From a phage: DNA of 64,000 nucleotides. Position 1 is the stretch's first letter, and the number at the start of each line of letters is the position of its first letter. Location: sequence record PZ543597.1; one strand, 5' to 3'. Position numbers and translations under genes: made by a program. This document shows, in pieces, positions 1 through 17,296 of the stretch. Under the pieces are notes generated by a model, which was not told where the DNA came from, did no database searches, and worked only from the letters and a program-made list of their open reading frames with translations.

Positions 1-334
1 AGGAATTTATCCTCACCGTAAAGACCCTACTAAAGCGGGCGGATTTATTCTTGAATCAGAGTGTGGAAAAATTAAGGTAAATGCTGGTTCAGGCTTAAAA
101 GATAAAGCTGGCGTAAAATCACATGAACTTGACCGTACTCGCATTATGGAAAACCAAAATTATTATATTGGAAAAATTCTAGAGTGCGAATGCAACGGTT
201 GGTTAAAATCTGATGGCCGTACTGATTACGTTAAATTATTTCTTCCGATTGCGATTCGTTTACGTGAAGATAAAATGAAAGCTAATACATTCGAAGATGT
301 ATTTGGTGATTTTCATGAGGTAACTGGTCTATGA
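1..334 (+). CDS. 30: DNA ligase, 3' end (5'-truncated by window edge; frame starts at nt 2)
   Basis: Translation from nt 2 reads ...GIYPHRKDPTKAGGFILESECGKIKVNAGSGLKDKAGVKSHELDRTRIMENQNYY...FGDFHEVTGL*, matching the T4 DNA ligase C-terminus as recalled; stop at 332-334. Confidence 0.9.
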   Translation, partial: GIYPHRKDPTKAGGFILESECGKIKVNAGSGLKDKAGVKSHELDRTRIMENQNYYIGKILECECNGWLKSDGRTDYVKLFLPIAIRLREDKMKANTFEDVFGDFHEVTGL

Positions 335-519
335 AAGCTTACTTAGAAACAATTGTCATTGCTCAAAAAGAAGGTGGAGATGTTTCTACTTCTGTATCAC
401 AAATCATGCTTGAATTTATAGATGCATATGCTTATAATAAATTTACAGAAACATTTGATGCCTATGAAAAAGGTCCGAAGTTTGAAATATACCGTACTCT
501 CTTACCACTAGATTATTAA
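331..519 (+). CDS. hypothetical small protein
   Basis: 62-aa ORF, start overlaps ligase stop (ATGA); followed by terminator hairpin. Confidence 0.5.
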   Translation: MKAYLETIVIAQKEGGDVSTSVSQIMLEFIDAYAYNKFTETFDAYEKGPKFEIYRTLLPLDY

Positions 520-545
520 AGGCCTTCGGGCCTTTAATTTTATAA
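518..545 (+). terminator. rho-independent terminator (GGCC-TTCG-GGCC stem-loop plus T-run)
   Basis: aaaggccttcgggccttt followed by aatttt. Confidence 0.6.
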
Positions 546-568
546 ATAGAATAAACACTAGAGAGGAT

Positions 569-2626
569 ATGATGGAACTTATTACAGAATTATTTGACGA
601 AGATACTACTCTTCCGATTACAAACTTAAATCCAAAGAAGAAAATACCACAAATTTTTTCAGTTCATGTTGATGACGCAATAGAACAACCAGGCTTTCGT
701 TTATGTACTTATACATCTGGAGGTGATACTAACCGTGATTTAAAGATGGGCGATAAAATGATGCACATCGTTCCTTTTACATTAACTGCTAAAGGTTCAA
801 TTGCTAAATTAAAAGGTCTCGGTCCAAGCCCAATTAATTACATCAATTCAGTTTTTACTGTTGCGATGCAAACGATGCGTCAGTATAAAATTGATGCCTG
901 CATGCTTCGTATTCTTAAGTCTAAAACTGCTGGTCAAGCTCGACAAATTCAAGTTATTGCTGATAGACTTATCCGCAGTCGTTCAGGTGGCAGATACGTC
1001 CTTCTTAAGGAACTCTGGGATTACGATAAAAAGTATGCATATATTCTTATACATCGCAAAAATGTATCACTAGAAGACATTCCAGGAGTTCCGGAAATTA
1101 GCACCGAGCTCTTTACTAAAGTTGAATCGAAGGTCGGTGATGTTTATATCAATAAAGATACTGGAGCTCAAGTAACTAAAAATGAGGCAATTGCTGCATC
1201 TATTGCGCAAGAAAATGATAAACGTTCTGACCAAGCTGTTATTGTTAAAGTTAAAATTTCCCGTAGAGCAATTGCACAAAGTCAGTCATTGGAATCTTCT
1301 AGATTTGAAACACCAATGTTTCAAAAATTTGAGGCTTCAGCAGCAGAATTAAATAAACCCGCCGACGCGCCTTTAATTTCTGATGCTAACGAATTAACTG
1401 TTATTTCTACTTCAGGATTTGCATTAGAGAATGCTCTTAATAGTGTTACAGCTGGAATGGCATTCAGAGAAGCTTCTATAATTCCTGAAGATAAAGAATC
1501 TGATGTTAATGCAGAAATAAAAAATAAAGCTTTAGAAAGATTACGAAAAGAATCTATTACTTCAATAAAAACTTTAGAAACTATTGCTTCTATAGTCGAT
1601 GATACTTTAGAAAAATATAAAAGTGCTTGGTTAGAAAGAAATATTAACAAGCATTCGCATTTAAATCAAGATGCTGCAAATGAGTTAGTGCAAAATTCTT
1701 GGAATGCAATAAAAACAAAGATTATTCGAAGAGAATTACGTGGATATGCTCTTACCGTTGGATGGTCATTGCATTCTATAGTCGAAAATAAAGATTCATC
1801 TAAATACACACCGGCTCAAAAACGCGGAATTCGTGAATATGTGGGTTCAGGATATGTAGACATGAATAATGCTCTTTTGGGATTATATAATCCAGATGAG
1901 CGTACAAGTATTTTAACAGCACCCGAAATAGAACAAGCCATCGATAATTTAGATTCAGCCTTTAAAAATGGCGATCGATTGCCAAAAGGTATTACTTTAT
2001 ATCGTTCACAGCGAATGTTACCTTCAATATATGAAGCATTGGTAAAAAATCGAGTTTTTTATTTTAGAAATTTTGTATCAACATCATTATATCCAAACAT
2101 TTTTGGTACTTGGATGACTGATTCAGCTGTGGGTGTTTTACCAGATGAAAAGCGTCTAAGCATTTCTATCGATAAAAATGATGAAGGGCTTGTTAATTCT
2201 AGCGATAATTTAGTTGGAATTGGATGGGTTATTACTGGGGCTGATAAAGTCAATGTTGTTTTACCCGGTGGAAGTTTAGCGCCTTCAAATGAAATGGAAG
2301 TCATTTTGCCACGTGGATTAATGGTCAAAATTAATAAAATAACCGATGCATCTTACAATGATGGAACAGTTAAAACTAACAACAAGCTTATTCAAGCTGA
2401 AGTTATGACTACGGAAGAACTCACCGAATCGGTAATTTATGACGGTGACCGTCTAATGGAAACTGGTGAATTGGTTGCAATGACAGATGATATTGAAATA
2501 GAAGACAGAGTTGACTTTGCATCATTTGTTTCATCAAATGTTAAACAGAAAGCAGAATCATCTCTCGGAATTATTGCGTCTTGCATAGATATTACAAACA
2601 TGCCTTACAAGTTCGTTCAAGGATAA
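569..2626 (+). CDS. alt: Alt, capsid-packaged ADP-ribosyltransferase (T4-type copy)
   Basis: 685-aa ORF; N-terminus MELITELFDEDTTLPITNL; C-terminal R-S-EXE motifs (TLYRSQ, NFVSTSL, EMEVILPRG); essentially the T4 Alt sequence as recalled. Confidence 0.9.
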   Translation: MMELITELFDEDTTLPITNLNPKKKIPQIFSVHVDDAIEQPGFRLCTYTSGGDTNRDLKMGDKMMHIVPFTLTAKGSIAKLKGLGPSPINYINSVFTVAMQTMRQYKIDACMLRILKSKTAGQARQIQVIADRLIRSRSGGRYVLLKELWDYDKKYAYILIHRKNVSLEDIPGVPEISTELFTKVESKVGDVYINKDTGAQVTKNEAIAASIAQENDKRSDQAVIVKVKISRRAIAQSQSLESSRFETPMFQKFEASAAELNKPADAPLISDANELTVISTSGFALENALNSVTAGMAFREASIIPEDKESDVNAEIKNKALERLRKESITSIKTLETIASIVDDTLEKYKSAWLERNINKHSHLNQDAANELVQNSWNAIKTKIIRRELRGYALTVGWSLHSIVENKDSSKYTPAQKRGIREYVGSGYVDMNNALLGLYNPDERTSILTAPEIEQAIDNLDSAFKNGDRLPKGITLYRSQRMLPSIYEALVKNRVFYFRNFVSTSLYPNIFGTWMTDSAVGVLPDEKRLSISIDKNDEGLVNSSDNLVGIGWVITGADKVNVVLPGGSLAPSNEMEVILPRGLMVKINKITDASYNDGTVKTNNKLIQAEVMTTEELTESVIYDGDRLMETGELVAMTDDIEIEDRVDFASFVSSNVKQKAESSLGIIASCIDITNMPYKFVQG

Positions 2627-2629
2627 ATC

Positions 2630-4687
2630 ATGGAACTTATTACAGAATTATTTGACGGCGCTTCGGCGCCGGTTGTTAACTTAAATCCTAAGCATAAAAT
2701 ACCTCAAATTTTTGCTATTCAAGCCGGTGAAGAAAGCGTGCTTCCTGGATTTAGATTTTGTACATACACCTCTGGTGGTGATACAAATAAAAACGTTAAG
2801 CCAGGCGATAAAATGATGCATATCGTAATGATAGGTGTTAATGAGAAACTATCATTAGTTAAACTTAGAAACTTGGGTGGAAATCCAATTGGTGTCATTA
2901 ATGCCGTTTTTGATACTGCTCTTCAAACAATGAAACAATATAAAATTGACGCATGCTTATTCCGCGTACTAAAGAGTAAAACAAATGGTGCAGCTCGTCA
3001 AATGCAAGTTATTGCCGACCGTTTAGTACGTACTAAAGGAGCAGGTCGATATGTTCTTTTAAAGGAAATCTGGGATTACGATAAAAAGTACGCATATATT
3101 ATGGTTTACCGTAAAAATGCCAATTTAGAAGACATTCCAGGTGTACCTCCTATTTCAACTGAGTTATTCACAAAAGTTGAATCAAAGGTTGGCGATGTTT
3201 ATGTAGATGTTAAAACGGGTAATGCTGTTCCTAAAGCTGTCGCTGTTGCCGCTTCTATTGCTTTAGAAAATGATAAGCGCACGGATCAAGCTGTTATTCA
3301 GAAAACTAAAATTAGTCGTCGATTAGCAGCACAAGCTCAATATTCTACTGTCGATGCTTCACTTCAGGGTGATAGCTTCGCTGCTAAGAAATATCAAGAG
3401 TTTGAATCTAAAGTTCCGGTATATAAAGCAGAAGGATCAATGAATTCTGGCGTTATTCAGATTGGTTCAAACTTCAGCAAAGGAGCTATCGGTGGTATGA
3501 GAAGTGCTTCTCGTTTTAAATCTAACGATTATGAACTAGAAAGCTTCCGAAATCATATTGCATTGGCCCATGCACGTTTACGTGATCCATCTATTAAGTT
3601 ACAGAGCGATATAACATATCAAGGTTCTCAGGAATATTTAAAGAATAAAGAATTTTTTGATTATAAAACTGATAAAATTTTAAGCGATCTTGCTGACATT
3701 AATATTTCTAATAGCTTTGATGTTATTAAGAAAATTATCAATGATTTAGTTAAAGGTTCTAAAGCCACGCCAGACGAAAAGGTAGCTATTATTCAATTTG
3801 TCATGAATGGCATTTATAAATTGATTAATGAATCTGCTGCTCAGGCATATGAATACGCAAGCACCGAAGTAACTCCAAAAGGATTAACTCAGGCTGAGTC
3901 TGATGTAATTGAAGATTATTGTGCAGATTCATATGTTGAAATGAACTCATTCCTCTTGGGTAAACCAGATTCTACCCGTGAAGAATATATGGAACGAGCT
4001 ATTAAACACATCGAGACAATGGATTCTGCCTTTGCCAAAGGTTCAGTTCTTCCTCCAGGAACTACGCTTTATCGTGGACAAGAAGTTACCTTTAAAACTT
4101 TACGTCATAATATTGAAAATAAAATGTTCTATTTCAAGAACTTCGTATCCACATCACTTAAACCAAATATCTTCGGTGAGCATGGTAAAAACTATATGGC
4201 TCTAGATGATTCCGGTGCAGTATTTTCTGGTGAAGGAGAAGGTTCAGTTGACGCAGAAGATTTGATGCATATGGGCAGTCACTCTGCTTATGCGAATGAA
4301 GATGCTGAAACTAGCGTGGGTATGGTAATTAAAGGAGCTGAGCGAATCAAAGTTATCGTTCCAGGTCATTTATCAGGATTTCCATCAGAAGCTGAAGTTA
4401 TTTTACCGCGTGGAATTTTGCTGAAGATTAATAAAGTGAGTACGTACATGATGAAAGAAACTGCTTATAACAAGTATCTAATCGAAGGCACAATCGTTCC
4501 TCCTTCTGAACAATTAGAAGAATCGGTATATGATGGCGACCATCTAATGGAAACTGGTGAAGTTCGTCCAATGGCTGGATTTAATCAATTCCTTGTAGAA
4601 GAATCAAAAGAAGAGGAAAACGAAGTTTCTCAAATCTTGGCTTCTTTGGTTAACATCAACGGAATGTCTAAAAAGTTCAAAATGTAG
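2630..4687 (+). CDS. Alt paralogue, ADP-ribosyltransferase with divergent central region
   Basis: 685-aa ORF 3 nt after alt; shares N-terminus (MELITELFD, CTYTSGGDTN, KQYKIDAC, GRYVLLKE) and C-terminal motifs (TLYRGQ, NFVSTSL, EAEVILPRG); residues ~230-400 unrelated to copy 1. Confidence 0.85.
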   Translation: MELITELFDGASAPVVNLNPKHKIPQIFAIQAGEESVLPGFRFCTYTSGGDTNKNVKPGDKMMHIVMIGVNEKLSLVKLRNLGGNPIGVINAVFDTALQTMKQYKIDACLFRVLKSKTNGAARQMQVIADRLVRTKGAGRYVLLKEIWDYDKKYAYIMVYRKNANLEDIPGVPPISTELFTKVESKVGDVYVDVKTGNAVPKAVAVAASIALENDKRTDQAVIQKTKISRRLAAQAQYSTVDASLQGDSFAAKKYQEFESKVPVYKAEGSMNSGVIQIGSNFSKGAIGGMRSASRFKSNDYELESFRNHIALAHARLRDPSIKLQSDITYQGSQEYLKNKEFFDYKTDKILSDLADINISNSFDVIKKIINDLVKGSKATPDEKVAIIQFVMNGIYKLINESAAQAYEYASTEVTPKGLTQAESDVIEDYCADSYVEMNSFLLGKPDSTREEYMERAIKHIETMDSAFAKGSVLPPGTTLYRGQEVTFKTLRHNIENKMFYFKNFVSTSLKPNIFGEHGKNYMALDDSGAVFSGEGEGSVDAEDLMHMGSHSAYANEDAETSVGMVIKGAERIKVIVPGHLSGFPSEAEVILPRGILLKINKVSTYMMKETAYNKYLIEGTIVPPSEQLEESVYDGDHLMETGEVRPMAGFNQFLVEESKEEENEVSQILASLVNINGMSKKFKM

Positions 4688-13592: not shown

Positions 13593-15104
13593 TTATAAAT
13601 TAACTGTTTTCATTACGTAATTAAATTTTTCATCTGCGTAGCGCTGAATACGATCAATGCCATGTTTTAAAAGATAGTTCAAATGAACGTATTTCTTTTT
13701 CGTATTAGCAGATTTTGGCTTAACACCGCAATCATCAATGAGGTCCCAGACCGTTGCGATTGTTTTAGAACCATGCTTACGTAATACGCGACCTATTGTT
13801 TGCAATACAATAATTTTAGATTTAACACCGTGTGCTAAAACAACGTGATGCAGATTTTTAACTGAAATACCAGTAGAAAATACACCATAACTAGCTACTA
13901 TAATTATTCCTTTACCGTTTTCAGCTAATGTTTTCATTACATTACGGGTTTCGGTATCAACTTCCCCTGATACGTAATAAACTTTATCGTATTCATTTTT
14001 AATTAAATCGAAAATAGCTTTACCATGTGATACATGCTTAAACATGACAAAAGCGTTTTCATCTTTTTGTGCAAGTTTAATAGCTAATTTAGCAATCCAT
14101 TTATTTCTTTTACTGAGTCCAGTAATAATTTTTATTTCTTCTTGGTAAGTTTTTCCCTTTAATTTAGTAGTGAACTCATCGGGATAGCGAAGAAAAATAC
14201 TATTAATTTTTAGCTCAGTTACTTGTCCATCTTCCATCAATTTAGAAGTCGTTACTGGCTTAAATATTTCACCAAACATTCCAACATACTGCATGATATT
14301 AGCTTTGCCATCACGTAATGAACCTGATAGACCGAATTTGAACATGCAGTTATTTAAACCTGATATGATAGATGAAATACTTTTTCCTGTAGCAAGATGG
14401 CATTCATCATTCATCATCATTCCAAACTGCGAGAACCATTCTTTTGGTTGTTTTACTACAGTTTGCCATGTACCAACAATTACCGGTGCATCATTTTTAT
14501 ATTTATCATCTTTTGATGCTCCGCCGCCGATTTTCTTTATCATTGCATGACTGAATAAACGATAATCAACAAAGTCATCAGCCATCTGAGTTGTTAAAGC
14601 GGTTGTTGGAACAATGATAAGAATTTTACCTTCATAATTTTCCAAATAATAACGTGCAAGCAAAGCTTGAATTAAAGATTTACCTGCGGATGTTGGAAGA
14701 TTAAGAATTCTGCGACGATTAACTAATCCTTCGAACACTGCATCTTTTTGATACCAGTGCGGTTCAATTCTTTTATTTCCTGAATAGATTTCTAATTTAG
14801 AAAGCCATTCATCAAAATCTTTTCTTGATAATTCTTCTTTTTCGTTAATTTGCGGGTCAATCCAGGCTTTATAGCCAAAATTATCACAGAACTTTTTAAT
14901 TTGCCCGACTAAGCCGAATGGAAGAAGGCGATTATAATCTAAAAGACGGATTCGTCCATCCCAGTGACCATATTTGTATTTCGGATTAAAACGATACCCG
15001 TCAGCTTCAAAGCTAAAGAAATCACGGAGTTCATGAAATGTACTTTCTTCACAATCAATTCTCACGTGACTAAAATCATAAAAATGTACTTTAATGTCAG
15101 TCAT
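13593..15104 (-). CDS. uvsW: UvsW RNA-DNA/DNA helicase (SF2)
   Basis: 503-aa ORF; helicase motifs (PTSAGKS Walker A, DECH box); order as T4. Confidence 0.9.
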   Translation of the reverse strand: MTDIKVHFYDFSHVRIDCEESTFHELRDFFSFEADGYRFNPKYKYGHWDGRIRLLDYNRLLPFGLVGQIKKFCDNFGYKAWIDPQINEKEELSRKDFDEWLSKLEIYSGNKRIEPHWYQKDAVFEGLVNRRRILNLPTSAGKSLIQALLARYYLENYEGKILIIVPTTALTTQMADDFVDYRLFSHAMIKKIGGGASKDDKYKNDAPVIVGTWQTVVKQPKEWFSQFGMMMNDECHLATGKSISSIISGLNNCMFKFGLSGSLRDGKANIMQYVGMFGEIFKPVTTSKLMEDGQVTELKINSIFLRYPDEFTTKLKGKTYQEEIKIITGLSKRNKWIAKLAIKLAQKDENAFVMFKHVSHGKAIFDLIKNEYDKVYYVSGEVDTETRNVMKTLAENGKGIIIVASYGVFSTGISVKNLHHVVLAHGVKSKIIVLQTIGRVLRKHGSKTIATVWDLIDDCGVKPKSANTKKKYVHLNYLLKHGIDRIQRYADEKFNYVMKTVNL

Positions 15105-15141
15105 GTCTAAATACCATGTAATAAATATATCTATATTTATA

Positions 15142-15149
15142 CTGAGGAA
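15142..15149 (-). promoter_or_regulatory. late promoter (TATAAATA on minus strand) upstream of uvsW
   Basis: plus-strand tatttata 38 nt upstream of the uvsW start. Confidence 0.5.
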
Positions 15150-15154
15150 ATATT

Positions 15155-15835
15155 ATGATAGATAAAGATTATATTGCAGAGCTGAAGGCTCTTGATGATA
15201 ATAAAGAAGCTAAAGCTAAATTAGCTGAATATGCTGAACAGTTTGGTATAAAGGTCAAAAAGAATAAATCTTTTGATAATATCGTTATTGATATTGAAGA
15301 AGCCCTCCAGAAGCTCGCTAGTGAACCTATGCCAGAGACTGATGGGTTATCTATTAAAGACTTAATTGATGCTGCTGATGCCGCAGAAGGGTTAAAATAT
15401 GACGATGAAGAAGTCAATCCAGAAGCAGCACTTCTGATTGATTCTCCGGTTAAATCTGACATTAAAATTGAAGTAGTAGAAACGGATAAAATTCCTGAAA
15501 ATACCGATGTTTTGATTGAAGATACTCCTTTTGTTGAAGAAAAATTCGAACAGGCTGTAGCTGAGATTATTGAATCTGAAAAGCCGTCTGTATTTACTCT
15601 TCCGGAAAACTTTAGTCCGAATCTTCAGCTGATTGGAAAAAATCCAGGATTCTGCACTGTTCCTTGGTGGATTTATCAGTGGATTGCTGAAACTCCGGAT
15701 TGGAAATCTCACCCAACTAGTTTTGAACATGCGTCGGCACACCAAACTTTATTTAGCTTAATTTACTACATTAATCGTGACGGATCAGTTCTAATTCGTG
15801 AAACACGCAATTCTTCTTTCGTAACATTAAAATAA
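15155..15835 (+). CDS. inh: probable Inh (inhibitor of prohead protease gp21)
   Basis: 226-aa acidic ORF between uvsW and hoc, as in the T4 map; assignment by position and length only. Confidence 0.6.
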   Translation: MIDKDYIAELKALDDNKEAKAKLAEYAEQFGIKVKKNKSFDNIVIDIEEALQKLASEPMPETDGLSIKDLIDAADAAEGLKYDDEEVNPEAALLIDSPVKSDIKIEVVETDKIPENTDVLIEDTPFVEEKFEQAVAEIIESEKPSVFTLPENFSPNLQLIGKNPGFCTVPWWIYQWIAETPDWKSHPTSFEHASAHQTLFSLIYYINRDGSVLIRETRNSSFVTLK

Positions 15836-15844
15836 GGATAACTT

Positions 15845-17263
15845 ATGGCTTTTACAGTTGATATAACTCCTAAAACACCTACTGGAGTTATAGATCAGAC
15901 TCAGCAGTTTACTGCTACACCCAGTGGTCAAACTGGAGATGGACCTATTACATATGCTTGGACTGTAGATGATGTTCCACAGGAAGAAACATCTGCAACT
16001 TTTAGTTATGTACTAAAAGGACCTGCCGGTCAAAAAACTATTAAAGTAGTTGCAACAAACCCAGTTCCAGATACTGATGCTGAAACAGCTGAAATTAGTA
16101 CAACTATCACAGTTCAAAATAAGACACAGACAACTACCTTAGCTGTAACTCCTAATAGTCCTCCAGAAGGAGTAATCGGAACAGCTGTTGAATTTACTGC
16201 TGCCTTAGCTTCACAGCCATCGGGCGCATCTGCTACGTATCAATGGTACGTTGACGGTTCTCCTGTGAGCGAAGCAACTTCTGCTACATTCAATTATACT
16301 CCTACTACAAGCGGAGTTAAAACAATTAAGTGTGTAGCTCAAGTAACCGCGGCAGATTATGATACAAAGGAAGTTACTTCTAATGAAGTGTCACTGACTG
16401 TTAATAAAAAGACGCAGACAACTACCTTGGCAGTAACTCCTGATAGTCCTGCTGCTGGAGTAATTGGAACCCCGGTTCAATTTACTGCTGCCTTAGCTTC
16501 TCAACCTGATGGAGCGTCTGCCACGTATCAGTGGTATGTAGATGATTCACAAGTTGGTGGAGAAACTAACTCTACATTTAACTATACTCCAACTACAAGT
16601 GGAGTAAAAAGAATTAAATGCGTAGCCCAAGTAACTGCAGAAAATTATAATGAAAAGGAAGTTACTTCCAATGAAGTATCATTGACAGTTAATAAGAAGA
16701 CAATGAATCCACAGGTTGCATTGACTCCTCCTTCTATTAATGTTCAGCAAGATGCTTCGGCTACATTTACTGCTAATGTTACTGGCGCACCTGAAGCAGC
16801 ACAAATTACTTACTCATGGAAGAAAGATTCTTCTCCTGTGGAAGGGTCAACTAACGTATATACTGTTGATACCTCATCTATTGGAAGTCAAACTATTGAA
16901 GTTACTGCTGTCGTTACAGCAACTGACTATGATAGTAAAACAGTTAAAGCCACAGGTCAAGTTCAAGTGACTGATAAAGTTGCTCCGGAACCAGAAGGTG
17001 AATTACCTTATGTTCATCCTCTTCCACATCGTAGCTCAGCTTATATCTGGTGCGGTTGGTGGGTTATGGATGAAATCCAAAAAATGACTGAAGAAGGTAA
17101 AGATTGGAAAACTGAAGATCCAGATAGTAAATACTACTTGCATCGTTACACTCTTCAGAAGATGATGAAAGACTATCCAGAAGTTGATGTTCAAGAATCG
17201 CGTAATGGATACATCATTCATAAAACTGCTTTAGAAACTGGTATCATCTATACCTATCCATAA
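15845..17263 (+). CDS. hoc: Hoc outer capsid decoration protein with an extra Ig-like domain
   Basis: 472-aa ORF; N-terminus MAFTVDITPKTPTGVIDQTQQF and C-terminal capsid-binding region (PYVHPLPHRSSAYIWCGWWVMDEIQK) match T4 Hoc as recalled; contains two tandem ~96-aa Ig-like repeats. Confidence 0.85.
   Translation: MAFTVDITPKTPTGVIDQTQQFTATPSGQTGDGPITYAWTVDDVPQEETSATFSYVLKGPAGQKTIKVVATNPVPDTDAETAEISTTITVQNKTQTTTLAVTPNSPPEGVIGTAVEFTAALASQPSGASATYQWYVDGSPVSEATSATFNYTPTTSGVKTIKCVAQVTAADYDTKEVTSNEVSLTVNKKTQTTTLAVTPDSPAAGVIGTPVQFTAALASQPDGASATYQWYVDDSQVGGETNSTFNYTPTTSGVKRIKCVAQVTAENYNEKEVTSNEVSLTVNKKTMNPQVALTPPSINVQQDASATFTANVTGAPEAAQITYSWKKDSSPVEGSTNVYTVDTSSIGSQTIEVTAVVTATDYDSKTVKATGQVQVTDKVAPEPEGELPYVHPLPHRSSAYIWCGWWVMDEIQKMTEEGKDWKTEDPDSKYYLHRYTLQKMMKDYPEVDVQESRNGYIIHKTALETGIIYTYP
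16124..16699 (+). repeat. tandem duplication (2 x 288 bp) encoding two Ig-like domains within hoc
   Basis: aa repeats TQTTTLAVTP(N/D)SP...ASATYQWYVD...FNYTPTTSGVK(T/R)IKCVAQVTA...EVTSNEVSLTVNKK at 16124-16411 and 16412-16699. Confidence 0.85.
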
Positions 17264-17267
17264 TCTC

Positions 17268-17296
17268 AGGGGCTTCGGCCCCTTTCTTCATTTTAA
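17268..17296 (+). terminator. rho-independent terminator after hoc
   Basis: GGGGC-TTCG-GCCCC hairpin followed by tttcttcatttt. Confidence 0.65.

Follow-up and report, generated by a model that had tools for sequence, protein, structure and literature searches.

The hoc gene of phage PZ543597.1 is probably a natural four-Ig allele of an old, ordered array of domain-2 cassettes

Introduction

In T4-like phages, Hoc is the principal antigen and has been proposed to mediate adherence to mucus; it is also widely used as a display scaffold. In these phages each gp23 hexamer binds one Hoc at its centre, giving 155 copies per capsid, and infection does not require the protein. In the DNA of phage PZ543597.1 analysed here, a stretch of 64,000 nucleotides referred to below as the window, hoc encodes a protein of 472 amino acids, and a preliminary description of the window proposed that an extra Ig-like domain, created by tandem duplication, accounts for the excess over T4. 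This raises the questions of what the surplus consists of, how old it is, and whether it belongs to this phage alone. The answer that we consider most probable, at about 85%, is that hoc here is a natural four-Ig Tequatrovirus allele in an old, ordered array of 288-bp cassettes, which changes length in whole units by unequal homologous recombination.

Identity and genomic position of hoc

The gene and its neighbours on the 5' side are as follows.

13593-15104, minus strand: 503-aa ORF at the position of the T4 DNA helicase gene (uvsW), upstream of inh
15155-15835, plus strand: inh (inhibitor of prohead protease gp21), an ORF named by synteny with the T4, PP01 and RB68 annotation
15845-17263, plus strand: hoc, an ORF of 472 codons (1419 bp)

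The product of the third ORF matched T4 Hoc in the PDB (5vf3_Z) with a phmmer E value of 1e-213. When the DNA was compared with deposited records, the identity was 100% with Escherichia phage DCP2 and 99.9% with the annotated hoc of ECO07P4 and ECO07P5. The 1419-bp gene has been deposited repeatedly under varying annotation, namely hoc, Hoc-like head decoration or PKD domain protein. Its start codon is separated from the stop codon of inh by 9 nt, and on its 3' side two small ORFs are followed by a 334-aa ORF at the position annotated as RNA ligase in the T4 record. The order uvsW position, inh, hoc and small ORFs is that of T4, with which the annotations of PP01 and RB68 agree, and the gene thus has the genome position of a hoc, with inh on one side and 24.3 / 24.2 / rnlB on the other within the late region.

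The surplus over T4 is one unit of domain 2

The domain layout of the encoded protein is listed below; the unit types named in it are described in a later section.

15845-16123, plus strand: Ig-like domain 1 (aa 1-93), aligned to T4 Hoc 1-93; beta strands in the AlphaFold2 (AF2) model with pLDDT 80-93
16124-16411, plus strand: domain-2 unit A (aa 94-189), a diverged first-position unit of the alpha-prime subtype and the "extra" copy relative to T4
16412-16699, plus strand: domain-2 unit B (aa 190-285), T4-type, with a near-identical alignment to T4 94-189
16700-16984, plus strand: Ig-like domain 3 (aa 286-380), aligned to T4 190-284; Pfam Ig_3 and I-set at 289-374, AF2 pLDDT about 90
16985-17260, plus strand: C-terminal capsid-binding domain (aa 381-472), equivalent to T4 285-376

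T4 Hoc is 376 aa long (5vf3_Z; record OZ209057), as the preliminary description had stated, and it shares neither the length nor the domain count of the 472-aa protein. In the phmmer alignment, Hoc 1-106 is paired with T4 1-106 and Hoc 187-472 with T4 91-376, which leaves precisely one 96-aa copy of T4 domain 2 as the surplus. Tandem Repeats Finder reported a single array at 16109-16702 with a period of 288 bp, 2.1 copies, 79% matches, 0% indels and a score of 752, and a second repeat search paired 16109-16396 with 16397-16684 at 78%. The size of the two adjacent segments, 96 aa or 288 bp, was given correctly at the outset; the identity of about 85% was set slightly too high, since for units A and B (16124-16411 and 16412-16699) the DNA identity is 79.2% and the protein identity 81.3%. 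The two units differ at 60 of 288 nt without any indel, and nowhere are they identical over more than 22 nt in a row.

The extra Ig-like domain is accordingly a second in-frame copy of domain 2, repeated with a 288-bp period and 0 indels. The two units are adjacent, in frame, of equal length and most alike each other: their 81% protein identity contrasts with only 36-42% to domains 1 and 3, which identifies the added module as a domain-2 paralogue rather than a foreign Ig domain. The copy boundaries fall at domain boundaries, marked by the VNKKT linker, and purifying selection is seen on both copies (see below). Pfam families PKD, Ig_3, Ig_2 and I-set matched above their cut-offs, and the family BiPBP_C was also matched.

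Predicted structure and capsid anchor

The AF2 model, built from an alignment of 33 sequences, had a mean pLDDT of 84 and a pTM of 0.54. It contains four beta-sandwich domains ahead of the capsid-binding domain, the domain count for which structure prediction had been proposed as a check, with pLDDT of about 90; averaged by block, residues 1-380 score 80-95, and the arrangement of strands is the same in unit A as in unit B. The confidence in the C-terminal domain was low because the alignment is shallow, and with this and a pTM of 0.54 the model does not fix the straightness of the fibre. In a Foldseek search against the PDB the top matches were four-Ig fragments of Sidekick, Dscam and ICAM-5, and the best extended match was a rod-like four-Ig adhesin fragment, 4P99. 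Pfam, AF2 and Foldseek all show the N-terminal string of Ig-like beta-sandwich domains by which a Hoc is recognised.

The other hallmark of Hoc, a C-terminal capsid-binding domain with the residues that contact gp23, is also present. In T4 this domain comprises residues 281-376, and the contact residues are Tyr293, His295, Arg300, Trp309 and Trp310 (PMC10385173). Their equivalents, Y389, H391, R396, W405 and W406, are all found here, in the motif YVHPLPHR...WCGWWVMD. Over aa 381-472 there is one difference from T4 285-376 (D328 -> E424), and comparison of the full T4 domain 281-376 with Hoc 377-472 gives two, A281 -> D377 and D328 -> E424. A domain so nearly identical would be expected to seat Hoc at the gp23 hexamer centres as in T4.

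Age of the copies and selection on them

By the Nei-Gojobori method, units A and B are separated by a dS of 0.90 and a dN of 0.112, a dN/dS of 0.12. Similar values were obtained from 34 within-gene unit pairs of 13 multi-unit hoc genes, for which DNA identity was 74-85%, median dS 0.81 and median dN/dS 0.18. The median dS between phages was 0.30 for domain 1, 0.30 for domain 3 and 0.19 for the C-terminal domain. As the dS within genes exceeds that of the flanking domains, the unit lineages are older than the divergence of the sampled hoc alleles, and the dN/dS values indicate that every copy is under purifying selection. The view that the diverged copies represent an older, maintained duplication and not an artefact is borne out by these figures. 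The high-entropy positions of the units are enriched in predicted loops, where 17 of 24 are located, compared with 26 of 72 conserved positions (Fisher p = 0.004).

Copy number of domain 2 across phages

The number of domain-2 units was counted in an even-step sample of 60 of the 679 matching phage records. One unit was found in 32 of the 60, two units (the 1419-bp gene) in 18, three in one and four in one; the remaining eight were partial matches or belonged to other genera. Among the best 120 clusters in the protein database, 77 had a length of 376 aa, 29 of 472 aa and 8 of 568-570 aa. A Hoc of 664 aa with four units is encoded by slur03, FJ1 and Sfk20, and a scan of IMG/VR yielded 21 loci, mostly from other genera. 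The four-Ig form is thus present in roughly a third of Tequatrovirus hoc genes, including those of the long-deposited phages ime09, PP01, wV7, HP3 and pSs-1, and the second copy of domain 2 is neither private to phage PZ543597.1 nor recent.

Two further observations were made on these records. In vB_EcoM-172859UKE1, FriedrichMiescher, 101117BS1 and PM107 the two-unit hoc is 1418 or 1420 bp long and has been split in the annotation into two CDSs ("Hoc part 1 / part 2"); such genes are either frameshifted pseudogenes or the result of homopolymer sequencing errors. HX01 and vB_Eco_F27, which are classified as Mosigvirus (loci 301-1431), have a hoc of the Tequatrovirus type that matches the entire window gene at 87-88% identity, which suggests from sequence similarity an exchange of hoc between genera. 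The hoc of RB69 matches the window gene in the C-terminal domain only.

Cassette types and their order

For each unit, the nearest DNA relative was found in another phage, at 92-100% identity, and never in its own gene. The nearest relatives of unit A are the unit of T4_ev240 (94.4%) and unit 1 of PP01 (91.7%); unit B is 99% identical to unit 2 of PP01 and 90.6% identical to the single domain 2 of T4. Clustering of the DNA separated an alpha group, beta, gamma and delta, and a T4-type group; unit A joins the first-position alpha units at a distance cut-off of 15%, and the alpha-prime subtype is common to the window and PP01. The arrays of individual phages were read as follows.

alpha-beta-gamma-delta: slur03, FJ1, Sfk20
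alpha-beta-delta: T4_ev151
alpha-gamma-delta: ESh36, OMNI12
alpha-beta: fPS-90
alpha-delta: ime09, HP3
alpha-group first unit, then T4-type unit: window, PP01, G28

Typing at the protein level is noisy (unit A is called "gamma" at 84%, yet it lies in the alpha cluster in DNA); with this typing, alpha occurred after the first position in none of 39 multi-unit database proteins, and delta was last in all nine of the arrays among them that were typed as holding delta. Single-unit Hocs were distributed over the types as b 23, t 21, a 18, g 12 and d 8. Site-by-site painting showed that the units are mosaic, the single unit of T4 ending in alpha-type sites, so exchange between units also occurs, and a picture of fixed types is a simplification blurred by gene conversion. 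We also asked whether a deletion in a four-unit gene could have left unit B as a plain fusion of beta and delta; this reading was not adopted, as the painting gave a mosaic that includes a gamma patch and lacks a clean switch.

On the mechanism that we propose, unequal homologous recombination between cassettes would change the length of an array by whole in-frame units, and the cassettes would keep a fixed order, with alpha leading, delta closing the array, and units of the beta, gamma and T4 types placed between these two or occurring singly.

Contraction and the origin of the first copy

A product of contraction was recognised in T4_ev240. Its hoc encodes 376 aa, and its domain 1 is 100% identical in DNA to that of the window. 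At the 60 sites that are informative for A versus B, a run of A-type sites in its single unit gives way to 12 sites of B type, and the switch can be placed in the following interval.

16340-16347 (unit A) and 16628-16635 (unit B), plus strand: CAAGTAAC, an 8-nt stretch identical in A and B, the interval for the crossover giving a gene of the T4_ev240 type

Removal of 288 nt from the window hoc at CAAGTAAC gave a sequence with mismatches to the T4_ev240 hoc at 10 of 1131 nt. The chimera of T4_ev240 is the derived state, because full A-type and B-type units exist elsewhere, for example in PP01, and the match indicates that a four-Ig gene can collapse to T4 length by unequal crossing-over. Both "extra domain here" and "lost domain in T4" are therefore live descriptions of the difference between the two phages. 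The sequences of T4_ev240, with one chimeric unit, and T4_ev151, with three units, come from the same submission, and domain 1 is not T4-like in either; a literature search found no paper describing the origin of these two phages.

As to the deeper polarity, three-Ig is the published architecture of the Hoc of T4 and RB49 (PMC10385173), and the three-Ig layout is the common form in the JS10 / Bp7 / IME341 lineage. Three Ig domains may be the ancestral state, with domain 2 expanded early in Tequatrovirus-type hoc and the arrays later contracted and reshuffled. The linkers between domains 1 and 2 and between domains 2 and 3 are near-identical (ACAGTT-CAA/AAA-AAT-AAG-ACA and ACnGTT-AAT-AAG/AAA-AAG-ACA), and at the A/B junction the end of domain 2 is joined to the start of domain 2 inside this shared stretch. 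The first duplication probably occurred via the linkers flanking domain 2 (GTT-AAn-AAn-AAG-ACA, i.e. V-x-N/K-K-T), and recombination at such short homology would give a precise in-frame repeat of the domain.

Alternative origins of the second copy

The strongest alternative is that the two-unit gene was formed in one step, by unequal crossing-over between an alpha-type and a T4-type single-copy allele in a mixed infection, in which case the divergence of the copies predates the duplication and says nothing on how long it has been maintained. T4-type phages recombine readily in co-infection, and suitable parents exist: the domain 2 of one single-copy Hoc is 95.8% identical to unit A (P0113) and that of another is 99% identical to unit B (P0109), every unit type occurs in single-copy genes, and the domain-2 alleles of single-copy genes average only 85.7% identity. 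Against this, arrays of two, three and four copies from many independent isolates agree in their order, which is better accounted for by descent from shared arrays, and single-copy alleles of every type could equally be products of contraction, of which one, that of T4_ev240, is documented. We regard an origin in one step as unlikely; it would in any case refine the timing of the tandem domain repeat and would not contradict it.

A recent duplication private to phage PZ543597.1, or an error of sequencing or assembly, is extremely improbable and was rejected: tandem repeats are notorious for causing errors in assembly and the window by itself cannot exclude an artefact, but copies that differ at 60 of 288 nt with a dS of 0.90 are not confusable or assembler-made, about 18 of the 60 sampled records, from unrelated laboratories, share the 1419-bp gene, and each copy is closer to units of other phages than to its partner in the same gene. 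We likewise rejected, as having next to no likelihood, the acquisition of a foreign Ig or PKD module by horizontal transfer; such modules are mobile among phage structural genes and the Pfam matches are to the generic PKD, Ig and BiPBP_C families, but unit A aligns with unit B at 81% over 96 residues without a gap and with domains 1 and 3 at 36-42%, the junctions reuse the hoc inter-domain linker, and the closest relatives are all hoc domain-2 units.

Comparison with other Hoc proteins and with adhesins

The reading of hoc as a member of an old cassette array can be set beside the known systems. T4 Hoc (376 aa; PDB 5VF3 chain Z, 8T1X; UniProt P18056) is alike in the position inh - hoc - 24.3 - 24.2 - rnlB and unlike in having one domain-2 unit fewer and a domain 1 that is just 85% identical in DNA; unit A differs from T4 domain 2 at loop positions. 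The Hocs of PP01, ime09, HP3, pSs-1, wV7, G28 and fPS-90, among numerous others, share the 1419-bp gene and the two-unit layout, and the second unit varies by phage, being beta in fPS-90, delta in ime09 and HP3, and T4-type in the window, PP01 and G28. The cassette array and the flanking domains are also shared by the five-Ig Hocs (568 aa: UGKSEcP1, OMNI12, ESh36 and T4_ev151) and the six-Ig Hocs (664 aa: slur03, FJ1 and Sfk20), which differ in having three and four units, respectively.

Outside this group, the number of Ig domains among Hoc homologues ranges from one or two up to ten, the last in Serratia phage Muldoon (PMC10385173, section 3.6), and the Hoc of phage PNJ-9 has lost one domain (PMC11853027). 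The Hocs of Muldoon, PNJ-9 and RB49 (structure 3SHS) resemble that of the window as an Ig string on a conserved C-terminal anchor; they belong to other genera and have gained or lost other domains. The JS10 / Bp7 / IME341 genes are 846, 1131 or 1416 bp long and encode 282, 377 and 472 aa; their 472-aa form repeats a unit of domain-3 type, and their 282-aa form is without the second domain of the lineage. This length series indicates that change of Ig-domain number within a genus is recurrent in Hoc. A T4-like contig in IMG/VR (19-3135) encodes a protein of 1039 aa that ends in the capsid-binding motif WCGWWVMD and resembles the very long Hoc of Muldoon.

The Ig/PKD repeats of bacterial adhesins and other surface proteins, such as the ice adhesin fragment 4P99, are similar in forming a beta-sandwich rod whose length is set by the number of repeats and changed by unequal recombination. 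Adhesin repeats are often near-identical, whereas the copies within a hoc gene are always diverged (74-85% in DNA).

Possible consequences for the capsid fibre

In the bacteriophage adherence to mucus (BAM) model, the Ig-like domains of phage decoration proteins bind mucin glycans. In T4, 155 Hoc fibres of about 180 A are carried per capsid, and their Ig-like domains have been implicated in binding to the bacterial surface and to mucin glycans (PMC10385173, PMC9958956). MUC2 binding by the Hoc of PNJ-9 has been mapped to the domain-2 residues S183-L184-T185 (PMC11853027). The NEVSLT motif, which contains this site, is present in both units of the window Hoc, at 180-185 in A and 276-281 in B. 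Judged from the sequence, the fibre of phage PZ543597.1 is likely to be about one Ig domain longer, with a second domain-2 module bearing different loops. Scaled from the published 180 A for four domains, the gain would be roughly 4-4.5 nm, and the added module would present variable loops of its own for adherence to glycans or surfaces.

We also put forward, as a tentative possibility, that Tequatrovirus hoc maintains in its domain-2 region an ordered collection of five or more old cassette types, which phage populations shuffle by unequal recombination; that this tunes the length of the fibre and its range of loops as a polymorphism of the population, for mucus or surface adherence or for escape from anti-Hoc antibodies; and that copies which are too similar are removed quickly. 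Such removal would explain why no near-identical tandem copies are seen. If the proposal is true, the parallel series in JS10 / Bp7 / IME341, which involves another domain, would make cassette shuffling a general property of Hoc.

The searchable literature yielded no experiment on a multi-unit Tequatrovirus Hoc, and no description of a series of domain-2 tandem copies in Tequatrovirus was found in full-text literature, although older Hoc papers (Sathaliyawala 2010, Fokine 2011) may hold one. Seven papers (PMC10385173, PMC11853027, PMC13390416, PMC10580926, PMC9958956, PMC13435897 and PMC3012670) report only general variation in the number of Ig domains among Hoc homologues. Variable Ig-domain number in Hoc is thus already published, and the pattern of cassette order is the only part that may be new. 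For phage PZ543597.1 alone the result is mostly a matter of tidying, the feature being real, common and already deposited as hoc. Phages that are otherwise near-identical but have three, four, five or six Ig domains provide a natural panel for work on mucus adherence, aggregation, antibody recognition and display efficiency.

Flanking signals and the uvsW/inh gap

One candidate signal was located at the 3' end of the gene.

17268-17283, plus strand: hairpin AGGGGCTTCGGCCCCT resembling a terminator, with a T run after it, immediately past the hoc stop codon

Phages G28 and fPS-90 have annotated terminators at the equivalent place. In the whole window there are 24 copies of the T4 late-promoter box TATAAATA, compared with 9.9 expected and a maximum of 16 in shuffled sequences. 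A scan of the window found no exact TATAAATA box on the plus strand just upstream of inh or hoc; the box nearest to these genes, at 15134-15141, lies on the minus strand and points towards the ORF at the uvsW position.

The gap between this ORF and inh (15105-15154) is just 50 bp. T4 has a 618-bp homing-endonuclease gene there (144-761 of the T4 locus), which we take to be segE, and no such gene lies between the uvsW position and inh in phage PZ543597.1. The gap is about 700 bp from hoc and might serve as a homing target during co-infection with T4, which could drive co-conversion of the nearby hoc sequence.
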